Virus record (IMG/VR): IMGVR_UViG_3300021963_000089
DNA: 64,000 nucleotides
Strand: one strand, 5' to 3'
Source: an uncultured virus (IMG/VR IMGVR_UViG_3300021963_000089)
Lineage: Duplodnaviria > Heunggongvirae > Uroviricota > Caudoviricetes
Numbering within the stretch: the stretch's first letter is position 1; the number at the start of each line of letters is the position of its first letter. This document shows, piece after piece, positions 1-8,251 of this stretch. The notes under the pieces are model-generated. The model worked only from the letters and a program-made list of their open reading frames with translations. It was not told where the DNA came from and did not search any database. The translations under genes and the position numbers were made by a program.

Positions 1-605
1 TAAGATTTAAGCCAAAGATACGGGTGTGAGACCGCAATCAAATGCTCGTATGTAGATTGATAGAAAGAGGACCAAAGGCCAACCAAGGGACTTGATCTTG
101 AAAATCGGTGAAGTATCCGCAAGAGAAACACAAATGGCGTGTCGCATATTGTATCCCAAAAGGATATGAAACGACAAACAACGCACGTCATTGTTAGGTG
201 CATGATAACTCAATGGTAGAGTAATAGCTATGTAAAGCTATGTGTTGCTGGTTCAAATCCAGTTCATATATACAAAAACGCAAAGTCGTTGTTTGTCTAG
301 GATGAAAGTGACTTAACTCTGTGATCGAAAGATAACACAGACAACGAAATGTCCGCAAGACACTAGTTGTTAATCGGAGTCTGAACGGTGTCCGCAAGAC
401 TTAACTGCTGTCGAAGGCAGACGGATGGATGAAGGTTGAATAGTTCTAGGTTAAGGTTGATAAGCCACAACCCTAAAAAGGCAGTCATGTTGGATACGAT
501 TATAGGCGCAAGTCGTAATCGTGGATAAGTTAGGAAGCCTGTCCGCAAGATGGGTATAATCTAACCGAAGGTCAACAGTGAAGGCGGTAATCTCACGCCA
601 AACAC
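1..605 (+). ncRNA. Large structured non-coding RNA, 3' portion (GOLLD-like candidate; 5' end outside window)
   Basis: No credible ORF. Dense hairpins with GCAA/GAAA-type loops: tgtccgcaaga at 350, 389 and 540; ctgtgatcgaaagataacacag at 319-340; acgattat...gtaatcgt at 496-522. Embedded tRNA-like module at 199-271. The family name is inference. Confidence 0.6.
199..271 (+). tRNA. Degenerate tRNA-like module embedded in the large RNA (8-nt anticodon loop TATGTAAA, no CCA)
   Basis: D arm actc-aatggta-gagt; anticodon stem atagc/gctat; T arm gctgg-ttcaaat-ccagt; imperfect acceptor tgcatga/tcatata. Confidence 0.6.
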
Positions 606-719
606 TTAATAAGATATTTGTTGATAGACTTTATACGGAACATTAATGTGAAATCCAACAATACTCTTATAAAAAATTGATTGATATAATCACAATCTCA
701 TTTATATTTATATGAGATT

Positions 720-3700
720 ATGGCCAAATTCAAAAACATTGCACGAGAACAATTTTATCATAAACTCATCACCGAGTTTGTAAATTCCCACCACAAATCA
801 CAATTTACCGTCTTGAATGAAGGATTGGATACAAAGTCCAATCTTTATTATGCAATTCAATTGGGTGAACAAACTGCTAAACAGATTGAAGCAGACATTT
901 TGAGTGAATATCTCAATGAACACCCAGTTCTAAAGGAAGATATTTTTCAACGTGGTTTGGCCAAGACAAAAGCATGGTTGACTACACCACTTGGTAAAGG
1001 ATTTACACAAGGTAAAGACACACAAGTAATTCAGAACTTGTTTGCAGCTCTCAAGAAGAACACAGACAAAATCATCAATGCGGGGCCAAGTCCATTTGCT
1101 CCATCCGCTGAAGATGTCAAAAACAGTCCTACACAGATTGGCCAAATCGGTGCATTGATTGGTAAAAGATTTGCTGCTCTTCAAAACAATCCAAAGTTAA
1201 ATGTTCCAGCTACACCAGCAGAACAACAAGCTGGTATGGGTCGTATTCAACAATTGATTGATAAATTGCGTTCGACTGGTTTGGTCAAGGGTGCAGATAA
1301 TGTATTGGATGAAATTGGTATTTTTGCTCGTCAACATCCTACATTGACCAACATGATTGTCGGAGGTTTGGTCGCCGTATTGACACTTTCTACAGGCGGA
1401 GGTTTGTTTGGTATTCCACTTCTAGGTAAGTTTTTGGTCGGCACAGCATTAAGAACTTTGCTTGGTATGTTGAAGGGTGAAAAAGCAACCCAAGCAGCAA
1501 CAAAAGCAGCCGCAGTATCTGGTGCTGGTATCGCAATTGGTAAGTTGTTGGGATTGTTTTATGATAAGTTGGCAGGTTGGTTGAGTGGTCCAGACGATGG
1601 ATCTGCTCTTCCAGTTCCAACAAAACCGGTTCCTACTCCTCAAGCAATGGATGTTGATACTAGCGCATTGGGTAAAGAAGAATATCTATCTAGTTACAGA
1701 GGAATGCTGTTTAATAAGGCTGAGAATGCAGCTAGTGCTGAAGAGTTTCAAACATATCTTCAACAAATTCAAAACAGCGATGCTCAATATGGGTTTAATG
1801 GAGAACTTCCTCAATGGAATCCAGCAAATGCGAGTGGCCAGTTACCTATTGGAACTCCAAACGTAACTCCTCCACCAGTTCCAACACCAACCACAGTTCC
1901 GCCTGGAATACCACAACCAGGCTTTGATCAACAACCTCCTGTAACTGGTGTTGATATTCAACCAACACTTACTACTCTACGTCCTAAGTTGGATGCATTG
2001 GCTAGATTGGCAAGCACAACGGATGTGAGAGGTGCTACTGCTCCAGCTGCAAGACAAGCACTTCAAAACTGGGTAGCTGGTATTAGTCAACCAGAAGCTC
2101 AAACAATGTTGGCAGATCCTAATGTGACCAATCAACTGATGCGTAAGGGTGCTTTGGGATTATTGAAGAAGAAATTTGGTCTACAAGAAAGTGAAATTGA
2201 TTTGTTGAAAGCTGAGTTATTGGGAAGTGCAATTGCATTGACCGAAGCAAATCCACTTACAGCTGCTAAGAACTTTATGTTTGGTGGTCCAGAAGTCGGT
2301 GGTAAAAATTCTCGTTTGGATTACAAACAAGTCGAAAGCGACTATTTGAAGTTCTTGAATAACATGGAAAGTTCTTTGGGTCTCAAGAGTGAAAAAGATA
2401 TTCTTGATACATTGAAGAAGTATGATAAGACATTCCCAGGCGTTTATGATTATGTGAAGAAAGTCCGTGATTGGTTGTATGGTGCTACACCAGAGTCTAA
2501 TGCTGCAACTCCTGATCCAGTAGTTGTTCCACCAGGCGAAGTTCCAACACCAACAAATCCAAATCCCGGCCCAGCAAATCCTACTGATCCTAAAACTATT
2601 CCAAAAGATCCACCAAAACAAGGTGATACTCCAACCCCAACTGTTGGTGGAGTATATTCAAATAAAAACTTGTCAAAGTATTTGGCTGCTTTGAAAGCAA
2701 GTCCGTTGTTTACTGGAAATCTACAACAACGTGTGGTCAATATGTTGAAGGCTACTGACAATCCAAATAGTCCAGAAGCAAAAGCAGCCATGGCTACACT
2801 CAAGACATTCTTGATCAATTTCAGCAAAGCAATTAGTGATGCTTCTGCTCAATATCGCCAAAAGGTTGGAGATCCAAACGCAGTTCGTGCTGAAATAACA
2901 AAAGATCCTCAATTTACATCATTGGCTGAAGCAGCTGCTGATCTATTGGCACGAAACAAAGATAGACAAACATTTTTGGGTGAGTTCAATGCTTCTATAC
3001 CAAACTTGGTTGGAGCTGCTTTTGAACTTCGTCAAGCATTTAATAGAAAGAACCCAAACAATGTATACGGTATGCAAAGAGCAGCTGCCGGTGCAGTTCC
3101 TCCAGTAATTGGATCTACAGTATCAGAAGATTTGGAAACCCGTGGTAAGGCTGTTGTTCCAAACTCTAGTGCTACCGGTAACTTGACTGGACCAGACATT
3201 GCAAATGCTAGAGCAATGTTTGCTAAGTTGATTGACTTGGGACCAATTCTTCAAAGAATTAACCCAGACAGTCTTGATAAGGCATCTTTGAAACAATTGA
3301 TTATCTCGTTCTTGGATATTGGCGATGTGTTAGTATACAAGAAGGGTAGTAAGAAGACCAATAAAGCTGTTGATGCAGCACTTCAAGGTTTGGATCTTCT
3401 TGGACCAGGTGGTGCAGCTGTTCCACAACCACAACAAGGTGGATTCAAACCTAAAGAAAAGACTTTGGTTATAGCTGGACCAGAAGAAAAACCATTGACA
3501 CCAAAAGCTGTTTATCAATATTTTGGTGATAAATGGAATCTTGTGACAAAGAGTGGATTACAACCACTTGATGTTAAAGGTGCGGCTAATAAGATTGCTA
3601 AGTTGAATGCAATTGCTAAGGATGGTAGAAATGACTATGATAAAGCAATTCAATTGATCAAGACTAACAAAAATGATAAGAGCAAAGGTATTAGTTATGA

Positions 3701-3764
3701 TCTAGGTAATCAAATTAAGGAAGGACTATATGATCTAAACGATTATAGGAAGTTCTTTATCTAA
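720..3764 (+). CDS. Large hypothetical protein, probable protease-processed internal head/ejection protein
   Basis: 1014-aa ORF with TATTTATA motif upstream. Repeated (L/I/V)-x-E sites (LNEG, LQES, LTEA, LAEA, VSED, IKEG), Gly/Ala-rich hydrophobic segments near aa 213-285, and Pro-rich linkers. Confidence 0.55.
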   Translation: MAKFKNIAREQFYHKLITEFVNSHHKSQFTVLNEGLDTKSNLYYAIQLGEQTAKQIEADILSEYLNEHPVLKEDIFQRGLAKTKAWLTTPLGKGFTQGKDTQVIQNLFAALKKNTDKIINAGPSPFAPSAEDVKNSPTQIGQIGALIGKRFAALQNNPKLNVPATPAEQQAGMGRIQQLIDKLRSTGLVKGADNVLDEIGIFARQHPTLTNMIVGGLVAVLTLSTGGGLFGIPLLGKFLVGTALRTLLGMLKGEKATQAATKAAAVSGAGIAIGKLLGLFYDKLAGWLSGPDDGSALPVPTKPVPTPQAMDVDTSALGKEEYLSSYRGMLFNKAENAASAEEFQTYLQQIQNSDAQYGFNGELPQWNPANASGQLPIGTPNVTPPPVPTPTTVPPGIPQPGFDQQPPVTGVDIQPTLTTLRPKLDALARLASTTDVRGATAPAARQALQNWVAGISQPEAQTMLADPNVTNQLMRKGALGLLKKKFGLQESEIDLLKAELLGSAIALTEANPLTAAKNFMFGGPEVGGKNSRLDYKQVESDYLKFLNNMESSLGLKSEKDILDTLKKYDKTFPGVYDYVKKVRDWLYGATPESNAATPDPVVVPPGEVPTPTNPNPGPANPTDPKTIPKDPPKQGDTPTPTVGGVYSNKNLSKYLAALKASPLFTGNLQQRVVNMLKATDNPNSPEAKAAMATLKTFLINFSKAISDASAQYRQKVGDPNAVRAEITKDPQFTSLAEAAADLLARNKDRQTFLGEFNASIPNLVGAAFELRQAFNRKNPNNVYGMQRAAAGAVPPVIGSTVSEDLETRGKAVVPNSSATGNLTGPDIANARAMFAKLIDLGPILQRINPDSLDKASLKQLIISFLDIGDVLVYKKGSKKTNKAVDAALQGLDLLGPGGAAVPQPQQGGFKPKEKTLVIAGPEEKPLTPKAVYQYFGDKWNLVTKSGLQPLDVKGAANKIAKLNAIAKDGRNDYDKAIQLIKTNKNDKSKGISYDLGNQIKEGLYDLNDYRKFFI

Positions 3765-4425: not shown

Positions 4426-5130
4426 ATGAAGAAACTAGTATTGATGGTATTGTCAGTGTTTGCTGCTTTGTCAGTCGCTCGTGCCGCTGATATCGCAAAC
4501 TTTAATGTTGACGCTGGTTACAACAACTATTATGTTGTTAACGGCGTTGCTTACGCAAAGGACACTCCATACGCAGGTATTGGTGCTGTTAAGTCCCTCA
4601 AGTATGCTGATGTATACGCTGGCGGTCTTTTCACTGCTGATAGTAACAATGAGCAGTCTCACTGGTTTGTTGGTGCAGGTAAGAGCTTGAGTCTTAATAA
4701 GGATTTTGCTCTCCGTTTGGACGGCACTGCACTTCGTCACCAAACTTCAACTGTTGGAATTGACAATTCTACGGAACTTGGAGCCAAGCTCGCTCTACAA
4801 AATCCATGGGTGACTCCATATGTTCGTGGTTCATTCAACTTTGAGTTGCATCAGAATGCATACTTTGTTGGTGCTGAACGTGCTCAGAAGCTCCCTCTTG
4901 GTTTCGTCTTGACTCCATCCGTTGAGTGGGGTAAGTCAACCTCTTATGAGGCAGTTAATGCCAAGGCTTCGTTGACTCGTCCAGTCACTTTTGCTTGGGG
5001 AACTGTTTCTCCTTATGCTGAAGTTGGTTGGTATCACAACAATGTTTTTGACACTACTGCTAGGGCATTTGCTTTGGGACGTTTTGACAACGACGTTGTT
5101 TATACTGCTGGTGTCAAGTTGAGCTTCTAA
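4426..5130 (+). CDS. Outer-membrane beta-barrel protein (porin-like)
   Basis: Sec signal peptide ending ARA-A, alternating amphipathic beta strands rich in aromatic residues, C-terminal beta-signal YTAGVKLSF, AAGGA RBS. Confidence 0.8.
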   Translation: MKKLVLMVLSVFAALSVARAADIANFNVDAGYNNYYVVNGVAYAKDTPYAGIGAVKSLKYADVYAGGLFTADSNNEQSHWFVGAGKSLSLNKDFALRLDGTALRHQTSTVGIDNSTELGAKLALQNPWVTPYVRGSFNFELHQNAYFVGAERAQKLPLGFVLTPSVEWGKSTSYEAVNAKASLTRPVTFAWGTVSPYAEVGWYHNNVFDTTARAFALGRFDNDVVYTAGVKLSF

Positions 5131-5157
5131 TCCAAATAAGCCAAACTAATAAATCAA

Positions 5158-5187
5158 AAGCCAATGGCAACCCCATTGGTTTTTTTA
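5158..5187 (+). terminator. Rho-independent terminator
   Basis: gccaatgg-caacc-ccattggt followed by a T run. Confidence 0.75.
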
Positions 5188-5377
5188 TGCGTTGATATGC
5201 AATTTCACTTTAATTGAAAAAAAATTAAATTTTCACTTTTTCTGAAAATGTGATCACTTTTTCAAATTTCGATGATATATATTGTTGTATGCGTAACAGT
5301 CTACAACCATCATTGTCCGTAGCGGGTCAACCTAGTTTGACCTGAGACCGATGGTTGCTATTTGCGAAAACTCAAGT

Positions 5378-5415
5378 AACCGTTGGTCTGAAAAGATCAA
5401 CGGTTTTTTGTTTTA
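5378..5415 (+). terminator. Rho-independent terminator
   Basis: aaccgttggtct-gaaa-agatcaacggtt followed by a T run. Confidence 0.7.
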
Positions 5416-5436
5416 AAAGATTTCGCAAAAAGCCCA

Positions 5437-5464
5437 TTGACAATTTCAAGGATGGTGGTAAAGT
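5437..5464 (+). promoter_or_regulatory. Sigma70-type promoter for the tRNA array
   Basis: TTGACA ... TGGTAAAGT. Confidence 0.55.
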
Positions 5465-5593
5465 AGTTACATGTTCGGGGTTGAAACTCTATCTGGTGTC
5501 CCCAACGAAAGTTAAAACACTTGATCGGTCTGAGGGTGATATGCTTAGTGCAGAACCTGACTGGCGATAATTGGATAAAAGAAAACAATTTAT

Positions 5594-5668
5594 GGACGAT
5601 TAGCTCAGTGGAAGAGCACCTCCTTTACACGGAGAATGTCGGGGGTTCAAATCCCTCATCGTCCACCA
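5594..5668 (+). tRNA. tRNA-Val(TAC)
   Basis: Cloverleaf; loop tttacac; TTCAAAT T loop; encoded CCA. Confidence 0.9.
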
Positions 5669-5675
5669 CTTTTAT

Positions 5676-5753
5676 CGGAATGTAGCTCAACTTGGCTAGA
5701 GCGCTTGCTTTGGGAGCAAGAAGTTGCAGGTTCAAATCCTGTCATTCCGACCA
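5676..5753 (+). tRNA. tRNA-Pro(TGG)
   Basis: Cloverleaf; cttgc-tttggga-gcaag; C1:G72, A73; CCA. Confidence 0.93.
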
Positions 5754-5759
5754 TTTTAC

Positions 5760-5837
5760 GGTGATATAGACCAACTGGAAGGAGTCGTTACTTTGAGATA
5801 GTAAATAGTGCAGGTTCGAATCCTGTTATCACCACCA
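5760..5837 (+). tRNA. tRNA with Leu anticodon GAG and short variable loop
   Basis: ttact-ttgagat-agtaa; 5-nt variable loop atagt; CCA. Confidence 0.8.
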
Positions 5838-5840
5838 ATT

Positions 5841-5924
5841 CGGCATGTGATGTAACAGAAGCCATGCGAGTCTTAGAAGCTCGTCCCGAAAGGGGTGTAG
5901 GTGCAAGTCCTATCATGCCGACCA
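5841..5924 (+). tRNA. tRNA-Leu(TAG)
   Basis: cgagt-cttagaa-gctcg; variable arm ccc-gaaa-ggg; CCA. Confidence 0.85.
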
Positions 5925-5934
5925 AATTTATAAT

Positions 5935-6012
5935 GGCTACGTAGACCAACTGGAAGGAGTCGTCTATCTCAAAAATAGAATAGTGCTGGTTCGAATCCAG
6001 TCGTAGCTACCA
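5935..6012 (+). tRNA. tRNA with Leu anticodon CAA and short variable loop
   Basis: tctat-ctcaaaa-ataga; 5-nt variable loop atagt; CCA. Confidence 0.8.
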
Positions 6013-6021
6013 ATCTAAAAC

Positions 6022-6107
6022 GGGTGTGTGGACTAAAGCGAAATTGGAAGAAGCGCCTTGTTTAAAGCGAGGAGTCCTTGGGGGTTCGAATCCCTTCACA
6101 CCTACCA
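6022..6107 (+). tRNA. tRNA-Leu(TAA), atypical (extra bases before the D arm, 7-nt variable region)
   Basis: ccttg-tttaaag-cgagg; T arm ggggg-ttcgaat-ccctt; CCA. Confidence 0.7.
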
Positions 6108-6114
6108 ATTTTAT

Positions 6115-6192
6115 GGGCTGGCATGTTCTAAGGCTAAGCGAGACTGCTTTGCAAGCAATCTGATGTGAGTTCGATTCTCACCTGGTCCACCA
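6115..6192 (+). tRNA. tRNA-Ala(TGC), atypical D arm
   Basis: Loop tttgcaa; G3:U70 in acceptor gggctgg/ctggtcc; CCA. Confidence 0.7.
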
Positions 6193-6291
6193 ATTTCAAA
6201 AGTGACTTTAAAATCATATTTGGTCGTATGATCTATGAGTGTAATTGACCTTTCGGGTGCAGTCACACATACCCAGTTTTTTAATTTATAC

Positions 6292-6379
6292 GGAAGTAGT
6301 CCGGCAGGTCGAGGAAAGCGTCTTGAAAACGCCTGGGGCCTAAAAACCCTCGTAGGTTCGATTCCTACTGCTTCCGCCA
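6292..6379 (+). tRNA. tRNA-Ser(TGA)
   Basis: Loop cttgaaa; long variable arm; G73; CCA. Confidence 0.85.
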
Positions 6380-6386
6380 TTTTTAT

Positions 6387-6480
6387 GGAAGGTAGACGAA
6401 TAGTTAGTTAGTCGTAGCAGTTTGCTAAACTGCCGTGGCCTAAAAAACCACTGAGGGGGCAGCACCCTCACCTTCCGCCA
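6387..6480 (+). tRNA. tRNA-Ser(GCT), non-canonical T loop GGCAGCA
   Basis: gcagt-ttgctaa-actgc; long variable arm; G73; CCA. Confidence 0.8.
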
Positions 6481-6486
6481 CTTTAC

Positions 6487-6562
<76 letters not shown>

Positions 6563-6571
6563 ATTTATAAC

Positions 6572-6645
6572 GCGGGTGTGATGTAACGGTAGCCTACATC
6601 CTTGCCAAGGACGATGAGAGGGTTCGATTCCCTCCACCCGCTCCA
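6572..6645 (+). tRNA. tRNA-Gly(GCC)
   Basis: GCGGGTG acceptor; loop ttgccaa; U73; CCA. Confidence 0.88.
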
Positions 6646-6655
6646 ATTTCAGAAC

Positions 6656-6729
6656 TGGGGATTTGCATAATGGTAGTGCGGAAGACTTTGAATCTTCTTG
6701 TAGGGGTTCGATTCCCTTATCCCCTGCCA
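6656..6729 (+). tRNA. tRNA-Gln(TTG)
   Basis: gaaga-ctttgaa-tcttc; G73; CCA. Confidence 0.88.
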
Positions 6730-6848
6730 TTTTATATATATCGGTTAAGGGTGTAATTTTAGAGAAATTGTAATAAGTGATCATCAGTTACAAGAGTAAG
6801 AACTAGTGATCGAAAGATCCATTCATCAAACACCGACAACAATTTATT

Positions 6849-6925
6849 CGGGGTGTATTGTCAATTAGGAGACGGCCTGATCTGGAGTCAGGAAGCTGCA
6901 GGTGCAAGTCCTGTCACCCCGACCA
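6849..6925 (+). tRNA. tRNA-Pro(TGG)-like, atypical anticodon loop (C33, A37)
   Basis: cctga-tctggag-tcagg; C1:G72 and A73 Pro identity; CCA. Confidence 0.7.
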
Positions 6926-6932
6926 TTTTATA

Positions 6933-7018
6933 TGCTAGCTGCAATCTGGTGAGAACGTTGGCTTAGGATTGAACCTAAGTTATCAGCGGTGATGGGTTCG
7001 ATTCCCATAGTTTGCACC
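6933..7018 (+). ncRNA. tRNA-like element / pseudo-tRNA
   Basis: T arm atggg-ttcgatt-cccat; closing stem tgctagct/agtttgca; long central hairpin gcttagg-attgaa-cctaagt; no proper anticodon loop. Confidence 0.45.
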
Positions 7019-7141
7019 GTTTTTTAGATTTAACAATGTGCGTGTTGGGGATTGACTCCAACATCGTGAGGGACACGATACACCCCTGTATGTCTGACCC
7101 GGACGAATCCGGCCCGGATAGGGTAGGGTTGAATTTAAATT

Positions 7142-7294
7142 TGATCGTTAGTGTATAGAATTATAGCACGATACCTATTTGCTGGTAGAGGAGATGGAAG
7201 TTGATGGGATAGATTAGTGAACAGTGAACCGGTCCTGTTCAATACTAGGAACGATTCGTGAAATCCCCATACATTCGCAAGTCACGGTCATCCA
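7142..7294 (+). ncRNA. tRNA-like RNA with acceptor stem, D arm, CCA and large internal insertion
   Basis: tgatcgt/acggtca 7-bp stem followed by T-CCA; D-like arm gtgt...gcac; about 110 nt of non-tRNA interior. Confidence 0.4.
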
Positions 7295-7338
7295 ATTTTA
7301 ACAGTTGACACAACAACAATCTGTGGTAGACTTTAGAT

Positions 7339-7566
7339 ATGAAGAAACTATTGATATCGTTGATTTTGATTGGCAACATTTTGGTTGCAAGTGAAATTAT
7401 CAAGGAAGAAAAGATCTTGCCAATTACGGTATATGTTGTCCGTAATGGTGACAGTGAACGATCAATTCATAAGGTTTTTTTGACCGAGAAGTCAGCAAAA
7501 AAGTATTGTGATATGTTTAAGGAAAATCACAATTACGAATATGAAGTTCTTGTGTTGACCGAATAA
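7339..7566 (+). CDS. Small secreted or membrane-anchored protein inside the tRNA array
   Basis: 75 aa with N-terminal signal peptide; own TTGACA...TGGTAGACT promoter at about 7305-7332. Confidence 0.65.
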   Translation: MKKLLISLILIGNILVASEIIKEEKILPITVYVVRNGDSERSIHKVFLTEKSAKKYCDMFKENHNYEYEVLVLTE

Positions 7567-7579
7567 TATTTATTAGAAT

Positions 7580-7653
7580 GCGGGTATGATGTAATGGTAG
7601 CCTGAAGCTCTTCCAAAGCCTATGCGTGAGTTCGATTCTCACTACCCGCTCCA
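7580..7653 (+). tRNA. tRNA-Gly(TCC)
   Basis: GCGGGTA acceptor; loop cttccaa; U73; CCA. Confidence 0.88.
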
Positions 7654-7866: not shown

Positions 7867-8251
7867 GGGCGCGTTCAGGTTTCGATTTAAGGATGCGTTC
7901 ATGCTAGGCACGTAGAGGATGATAGTTGGCCTCTTTAAACGTCTATCAAAACATAACTGCTGAAGAAAACGTGGTTAGCTATGACTTCTCTTATGGAGAA
8001 GTTGCAGCACTCGCAGCCTAATTAAAGGTTGCACACTTGACTAATGACTGTTCGATAGTTGGTTGGGTGTTATCATCGAACTATAATTGGAATGATTGAT
8101 TTGCTCATCCAATCTACCATTCTGTAAATCTTAAGAAACGGATTTTTGATGATTTAGATTCTGTTTCCTATCAAATTCAAATCATACAAGCGTGTAGTCT
8201 GGTATGGATCACTTCTTAAAGACGCGAGTTCGATTCTCGCCGCGTCCACCA
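7867..8251 (+). ncRNA. ssrA: tmRNA; tag ORF 7959-8021 encodes (A)AEENVVSYDFSYGEVAALAA*
   Basis: 5' GGGCGCG...GGTTTCGA; 3' T arm gcgag-ttcgatt-ctcgc plus cgcgtcc-ACCA with G3:U70; resume context ataact-GCT; tag ends ALAA. Confidence 0.93.

Follow-up and report, generated by a model that had tools for sequence, protein, structure and literature searches.

The GOLLD RNA env-38 has been solved by cryo-EM as a closed 14-mer cage with D7 symmetry and, in the part of that report available, the 5' domains form the caps and the 3' domains the rings of a shell held together by kissing loops and A-minor contacts (Kretsch et al. 2025, PMC12286853). The same text describes a disordered, unresolved linker that faces inward, and mentions that linker tRNAs are sometimes present in GOLLD (PMC12286853). 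The 3' domain of another GOLLD forms 8-, 10- and 12-mers, as stated in the available portion of a 2026 review (PMC12990946), so that the copy described here need not share the 14-mer stoichiometry. The review text also covers a GOLLD of Mycolicibacterium with a tRNA-Phe in J13/15 and brings in the idea of 'inhibited storage' (PMC12990946), and the GOLLD of M. aubagnense holds a pseudo-tRNA for which no separate product was detected, according to the available part of that study (Behra et al. 2019, PMC6582537). The tRNA-in-linker architecture is already described for GOLLD. ROOL RNAs are likewise large, ornate, phage-linked, located near tRNAs and cage-forming, but their sequence and fold are unrelated to those of GOLLD, again as far as the available text goes (PMC12286853).

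The sequence analysed here, referred to as the window, is a stretch of 64,000 nucleotides from an uncultured Caudoviricetes virus (IMG/VR record IMGVR_UViG_3300021963_000089). An earlier note, made from its letters alone, had placed a large ornate non-coding RNA at 1 to 605 and had named GOLLD as one candidate beside ROOL or a new class, to be decided by cmscan, covariation and RNA sequencing. Scanning with cmscan against Rfam 15 gave a match to GOLLD (RF02032) at window 132-599 (+) with 207.8 bits (E 2.8e-57), which exceeds the gathering score of 150 bits by 58 bits and covers the entire model, 1-416 of 416. ROOL, which we take to be included among the 4227 families of the release scanned, had no match in the region, either at its gathering score or at E<=1 over positions 4500-5760 of the identical contig L005 (introduced below). 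Together, the full-model GOLLD match and the absence of a ROOL match identify the RNA as GOLLD, neither ROOL nor a new class, and the candidate named was the right one. The feature is real, and it adds one more member to an established RNA family. Seven related contigs also match GOLLD, at 203-212 bits. The score of the window copy (208 bits) is lower than those of six other GOLLD matches, of the Lactobacillales type (254-280 bits). Besides GOLLD and a tRNA, the permissive scan of the intergenic region (E<=1) returned just two further hits, both at chance level, and intron families had no match in the GOLLD region at this threshold. Window 1-720 had no blastn match among 50,697 phage records.

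Compared with env-38, the window copy shares a full length of more than 800 nt, a conserved 3' domain with a long-range helix, a variable 5' domain and a linker between them, and like other members of the family it is carried by a phage beside tRNA arrays. It differs from the family in two helices that are half formed in its clade, in extra hairpins capped by CGCAA or GCAA, and in a helix that closes the linker. Very probably, window 1 to approximately 650 makes up the 3' two-thirds of a GOLLD RNA gene in a large aquatic phage with a contractile tail, the full RNA being approximately 870-940 nt long; by homology it would assemble into a cage, and the tRNA-like module of its linker would be kept for its shape.

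To define the extent of the gene, five viral contigs were retrieved with a 32-nt pattern, and the upstream sequence was taken from L005, which is 100% identical to window 1-720 (window position = L005 position - 4984). Identity to the window is 99.3% for L004, 90% for L006, 86% for L002 and L003, and 68% for L130. The intergenic gap of L005 is 1134 nt long, from the end of the upstream ORF at 4569 to the start, at 5704 (window 720), of an ORF of 1014 aa. Neither of the flanking ORFs, at window 720-3764 (+; 1014 aa) and L005 3310-4569 (+; 419 aa), has a Pfam or PHROG match. Conservation with L002 and L006 spans L005 4726-5641 and a separate block at 4665-4712, and this block contains a conserved sigma-70-like promoter candidate, TTGACA-16-TAAGAT. 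The most likely start of the RNA, predicted from this element, is about 7 nt past the -10 hexamer, near L005 4720, which corresponds to window -265. Approximately 265-300 nt of the GOLLD 5' domain thus lie upstream of the window in the identical contig. At the other end, similarity to L002 reaches about window 657, and the probable 3' tail of the transcript is at 600-659 (+), where contigs from RNA libraries end at 638, 642, 645 and 659. The scan for terminators found no terminator-like site on the + strand. For the feature proposed at 1 to 605, base 1 is not the start, as the RNA is cut by the window, and the end is probably at about 640-660 and not at 605.

Two further observations were made at the ends of the transcript. 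The palindrome ACATTAATGT is located at window 640-649 (+), at the probable 3' end, and may be there by chance; the aligned place in L002 holds another palindrome, AACGTT. The other observation is a hairpin element of some 66 nt at the 5' end (columns 1-66 of alignment A4, between L005 4727 and 4728), which L020, L006, L002 and L024 have and the window lineage and L023 do not.

Sequences of the gene were detected in public libraries. At least half of the sampled words were contained in 20 of the 24 sequencing runs listed, 12 of these 20 being RNA runs, and the metagenomes come from freshwater, riverine, estuarine and marine samples. For four of the RNA runs, each from a different study, the contigs were placed on L005 4300-6100. 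Run X12 has one contig of 865 nt (4760-5622) and X16 one contig of 946 nt with a depth of 492 (4686-5626); X6 (4760-5643) and X8 (4764-5629) cover the gene in several pieces. In X16 this depth compares with 3.5 and 4.4 for two contigs of the downstream gene. The upstream ORF was reached by no contig in the four runs, and L005 4300-4685 and 5644-5729 were uncovered, which is not evidence of absence. The starts of the contigs disagree, since that of X16 (4686) lies before the start predicted from the promoter and those of the other three, near 4760, lie after it. Neither the ends nor the strand nor the level can be proven from contigs, and some of the signal may stem from carried-over DNA; because of this, and of the disagreeing starts, the contigs are taken only as a hint that the GOLLD unit is approximately 0.87-0.94 kb long and abundant in RNA libraries. 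The contigs of the four libraries cover just this unit. The tRNA module in the linker is bridged unbroken in three of the four runs (X12, X16 and X6), by contigs that could derive from precursor molecules.

The structure of the RNA was analysed by mapping the Rfam consensus manually onto window positions, with a check by script, and adding the cloverleaf of the tRNA-like module and the helix 176-182/288-294. L130 was added to the alignment as a distant relative (68% identity, GOLLD 209.8 bits). Over six sequences from five lineages, 46 of the 135 model-derived pairs change on both sides and 88.5% of cells are paired. Shuffled controls gave 13.7±2.6 such pairs, with none of 500 as high, and slid controls gave 2-5. 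Before the addition of L130, with seven rows of which two were partial, 21 of the 135 pairs had changed on both sides (shuffles 8.5±2.0, 0 of 500 as high; slid controls 0-1). Covariation, the second of the checks, is thus positive. Thirteen of the 135 model pairs are non-standard in the window, and helices 385-388/421-424 and 464-469/477-482 are just 50% paired over the six sequences. The + strand folds better than its shuffles and than the - strand, with folding energy z scores of -3.66 and -2.37, respectively (20 shuffles each).

Upstream of the Rfam match there are a further 400 nt or so of structured, covarying sequence. RNAalifold predicted 106 pairs for the 5' domain from six sequences, 19 of which changed on both sides (shuffles 8.7±1.9, 0 of 500 as high; slid controls 1-3), a count that is favoured by the structure having been predicted from the same alignment. 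L020 and L024 cover the 5' part only and were used just in alignments A4 and A5. L125 and L126 carry the clade motif without a GOLLD match at the gathering score, and were excluded from the counted alignments. A MAFFT alignment with the distant GOLLDs L011-L013 (A2) was visibly misaligned and was dropped for covariation, and a global alifold of A3 gave pairs between the promoter and the 3' domain, so that only its local hairpins were kept as leads.

The end of the 5' domain, cut by the window start, occupies window 1-131 (+), outside the Rfam model. It is conserved in relatives at 83-90% identity, and at 68% with L130. It includes a hairpin at 18-27/42-51 with an inner helix 30-31/38-39 and a CCGCAA loop; the block of about 56 nt around this 18-51 hairpin is invariant in the four A3 sequences, and L023 and L130 differ from it at a few positions. 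A variable hairpin follows at 68-94, then a stretch at 96-126 with CGCAA at 118-122, and bases 1-13 are predicted by alifold to pair with sequence upstream of the window. The Rfam model begins with a long bulged hairpin at 132-193 (+; model positions 1-62), the last stem ahead of the linker. Its helices 132-140/185-193, 141-145/171-175 and 148-156/162-170 are 83-86% paired, with 6 compensatory pairs over the six sequences.

The linker is closed by helix 176-182/288-294 (176-294, +), which forms a pseudoknot relative to the hairpin at 132-193 and encloses the linker together with the tRNA-like module. Over the six sequences 95.2% of its cells are paired, and three of its seven pairs are compensatory. 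The earlier description of a tRNA-like module inside a longer helix therefore holds, since this helix brackets the module. The first half of the 3' domain is framed by the long-range helix 295-303/443-451 (295-451, +), written with [ ] brackets in Rfam, which is 100% paired in the six sequences with five of nine pairs changed on both sides. Between its strands are the hairpins of 318-437 (+): one at 318-341 with a GAAA loop, one at 342-369 with a CGCAA pentaloop at 354-358, and a multi-stem element at 372-437 that contains 389-401 (CGCAA at 393-397) and 405-420. The hairpin of the family model at 464-482 (+) is half formed in the clade, with three of six pairs. An enclosing helix at 489-494/571-576 (489-576, +) then holds two hairpins, of which 495-523 is extended in the clade by 505-514 with a GCAA loop, and 529-565 carries a clade-specific insert hairpin at 537-555 (CGCAA at 544-548). 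The model ends (599) with a terminal 3-bp hairpin at 584-598 (+) that has the conserved loop GUAAUCUCA.

Repeated hairpin tips had been noticed in this region by eye. The tip TGTCCGCAAGA does have exactly three copies in the 64-kb window, at 350, 389 and 540 (+), compared with a mean of 0.02 in shuffles (0 of 100 reach three). CGCAAG itself is not in excess overall, with 14 copies in the window against a shuffle mean of 11.6 and with 25 of 100 shuffles reaching that number. Its clustering is genuine, though, as five of the 14 fall within 1-605, at 118, 354, 393, 507 and 544. In the repeat motif a 4-bp stem (UGUC/GACA) carries a CGCAA pentaloop, and the CGCAAG hairpins are mostly CGCAA pentaloops on 4-bp stems. 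Those at 354-358 and 393-397 are conserved positions of the GOLLD model, CGCAA 544-548 and GCAA 508-511 are in clade-specific insertions, and CGCAA 118-122 is in the 5' domain.

Two other explanations of the region as a whole were weighed against its identification as a GOLLD RNA. That it is a ROOL RNA, or a new ornate class merely resembling GOLLD, has in its favour that the 5' 400 nt are outside every Rfam model, that two family helices are weak in the window clade, and that there are extra clade hairpins at 505-514 and 537-555. It is nevertheless highly improbable, as the full GOLLD model is matched well over its gathering score, the long-range helix and most hairpins covary as that model predicts, ROOL is absent even in the permissive scan, and a variable 5' domain is itself stated as a trait of the GOLLD family in the source text available. 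A - strand coding gene, the end of a gene or an intron, in which the hairpins would be incidental, is hardly conceivable. The - strand of 1-605 does hold ORFs of 47-68 aa, and in five full-length sequences from four lineages it has stop-free frames of 99-148 codons. However, all five of the - strand ORFs tested (three in 1-605 and two longer ones in the upstream part) were without a Pfam match, the open-frame lengths vary among lineages, relatives differ by indels that are not multiples of three, and substitutions are paired across helices. Moreover, the flanking ORFs stop before the gene and begin after it, and no intron family was matched. On the + strand of 1-605, the sole ORF of at least 30 aa is 30 aa long. 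The earlier reading of this stretch as free of any credible ORF agrees with these results, and that of a large ornate RNA with the cmscan match, the covariation and the contigs from RNA libraries.

The GOLLD gene is surrounded by phage genes and tRNAs. Matches to PHROG families include tail sheath, baseplate wedge, tail fibre, large terminase, portal and an SbcCD-like nuclease, and by these predicted functions the genome is that of a contractile-tailed phage. The nearest record, G001 (65.8 kb, starting at window 334), is rated 22% complete, and related contigs reach 108-112 kb, which together indicate that the phage genome is large. The first 8 kb downstream of GOLLD hold 11 tRNAs and a tmRNA, and six tRNAs lie within 4 kb upstream. 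The downstream array at 5594-7653 (+) encodes tRNAs for Val, Pro, Leu (three), Ala (two), Ser, Gly (two) and Gln, all with an encoded 3' CCA.

Other small RNA genes were also observed in these genomes. The tmRNA is at window 7867-8251 (+), with 120.5 bits in Rfam against a threshold of 47, and ARAGORN gives its tag peptide as AEENVVSYDFSYGEVAALAA. A tRNA with a CUA anticodon ('Pyl' in ARAGORN, resembling an amber suppressor) is located a few hundred bases upstream of GOLLD in L002 (4415-4490, +) and L024 (577-651, -), and is absent from the 5 kb upstream in the window lineage. On very large viral contigs of 372 kb and 229 kb, other GOLLD genes are preceded, at a distance of about 470 nt, by matches to the bacterial small SRP RNA, of 42-47 bits against 40 (L011 1816-1899, -; L013 1833-1920, -).

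The tRNA-like module of the linker is at 199-271 (+), where Rfam tRNA (RF00005, model 1-71) matches with 50.5 bits against a gathering score of 29, in a stretch that the GOLLD model treats as unpaired linker. ARAGORN also reports it, at 198-273, as tRNA-??? with no anticodon or amino acid named, so that the module noticed by eye is found by both programs. Its acceptor stem is at 199-205/264-270, the D arm at 208-222, the anticodon arm at 224-241 and the T arm at 247-263, and T271 is in the place of the discriminator. The D, anticodon and T stems are 97-100% paired over the six sequences, with one, three and two compensatory pairs, respectively; in the D stem of the window lineage a G-C pair has become A-U with pairing kept. 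Pairing is lower in the acceptor stem, at 80.6%, and all five copies aligned there have a C·A mismatch (201/268 in the window), L130 being gapped. The window copy has the core nucleotides U8, the D-loop GG and the T-loop TTCAAAT; in L006 and L023 the D loop is without GG and T-loop position 55 is a G.

Between stems 224-228 and 237-241 is an anticodon loop of 8 nt, UAUGUAAA, at 229-236 (+). It has the length given to it in the earlier note, and it is common to the window, the strains L004/L008/L022 and L005/L007/L021. Since the contigs of the four RNA runs report no insertion or deletion, the 8-nt loop is present in those libraries too. In L002, L006 and L023 this site of the linker is occupied by a regular tRNA-Thr(UGU), whose 7-nt loop is CUUGUAC or UUUGUAC. 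In L130/L132 (632-701, +) the loop is AUUAUAC, with the anticodon UAU and a compensatory change in the anticodon stem; these copies are without 7 nt of the 3' acceptor strand, and Rfam tRNA matches just model 8-63. By homology with the regular copies, UGU is at loop positions 3-5 of the window module, the preceding U has changed to A and an extra A is on the 3' side. The Infernal alignment alternatively places the extra base before U33 and reads the anticodon as GUA. As these placements differ, the anticodon is not assignable, and the window module has no 7-nt loop with U33.

The 3' end of the module is T followed by ACA, and the CCA reported missing by the earlier note is indeed not there. 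CCA is encoded in no lineage's embedded module and in 11 of the 11 free tRNAs of the window, and the module, with its mismatched acceptor, thus does not have a 3' end like that of the phage's own tRNAs. None of nine other GOLLD matches scanned (L011-L013, L026, L029, L031, L032, L034 and L038) has a nested tRNA. A wider scan with a consensus motif was unspecific, as only six of the 20 loci passed to Rfam, out of 80 fetched, were GOLLD; the absence of a tRNA within 120 nt upstream of the motif in all 80 says little for this reason.

Two described kinds of tRNA can be compared with the module. A tRNA-shaped element in the linker is shared with the linker-tRNA GOLLDs, so far as these are covered by the available text (PMC12990946, PMC6582537), but the element in the window derives from tRNA-Thr(UGU) and has an 8-nt loop, and its relatives have UGU or UAU. 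No description of an 8-nt anticodon loop in a GOLLD tRNA was found in the available text of the literature on GOLLD, on GOLLD with tRNA and on GOLLD and ROOL cryo-EM. What is new here is modest, namely the tRNA variant series and a hint that what has been preserved in the module is its fold rather than a role in decoding. Loops of 8 nt are also a feature of +1 frameshift suppressor tRNAs, such as the suf tRNAs of Salmonella. As in these, the window module has an extra anticodon-loop base in an otherwise regular cloverleaf; it differs in being embedded in a larger RNA, without CCA, with a mismatched acceptor and with U33 lost by homology.

How such an RNA may work can be proposed from the solved relative. 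A transcript starting about 265 nt before the window, after the TTGACA-16-TAAGAT promoter, would begin with a variable 5' domain, followed by the linker with its short closing helix and then by the family-wide 3' domain, whose last element is the GUAAUCUCA hairpin. By analogy with env-38, loop-loop and A-minor contacts between copies of this RNA may build up a closed homo-oligomeric shell, in which the CGCAA-type loops are the likely adenosine donors and the linker, together with the tRNA-like module, would face the interior. Cage formation here is an extrapolation from one solved relative, and we infer it on that basis.

Within such a shell the module could either be a structural mimic or a stored tRNA. 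We infer that it is kept for its L-shape, that is for the D, anticodon and T arms, and not for decoding, because these arms covary, the anticodon drifts (UGU, UAU and the 8-nt loop), CCA is never encoded and the acceptor is mismatched or shortened. A more specific idea, which is put forward tentatively and may well be wrong, is that in this clade of aquatic-phage GOLLDs the linker tRNA is selected as a shape, and that as many as 14 tRNA mimics, tethered inside the shell, could serve as a decoy or bait for some tRNA-binding factor; candidate targets would be a host anticodon nuclease, RNase P, the CCA-adding enzyme or the ribosome. It is, on the other hand, rather unlikely that the module is a working tRNA gene, with GOLLD as its precursor or store, from which the tRNA would be released by RNase P and a 3' nuclease and completed by the CCA-adding enzyme of the host, the 8-nt loop then being a four-base (+1 frameshift) decoder or the mark of a dead copy. 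Three lineages do keep the canonical Thr-UGU loop, and a decoding role is possible there; furthermore, the other Thr tRNAs in the window and the 5 kb upstream are only GGU and CGU, so that an embedded Thr-UGU tRNA would round out the set. The conserved core nucleotides of the window copy are also consistent with a functional tRNA, and embedded-tRNA storage is proposed in the available text of the review (PMC12990946). Against this are the free tRNAs, which encode CCA where no embedded copy does, the acceptor mismatch in every copy aligned there, the shortened acceptor of L130/L132, and the G55 and missing D-loop GG of L006 and L023. In the window copy the base 5' of UGU is, by homology, A and not the usual U, and the RNA contigs pass through the module. 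The mycobacterial pseudo-tRNA likewise gave no separate product, in the part of that study available (PMC6582537). The reading of the module as a shape and not a decoder is therefore preferred.

The structure of GOLLD has been solved recently, and the copy described here adds no new class of RNA. What it does provide is a natural series: across five related lineages the tRNA of the linker occurs in a canonical form (Thr-UGU), in a recoded form whose acceptor is shortened (UAU) and in a form with an 8-nt loop, with the arms staying paired. This series could help to decide whether the tRNA of GOLLD is releasable cargo or a fixed structural part. If true, tRNA mimics kept for their shape inside an RNA shell would be a first handle on the purpose of GOLLD cages.
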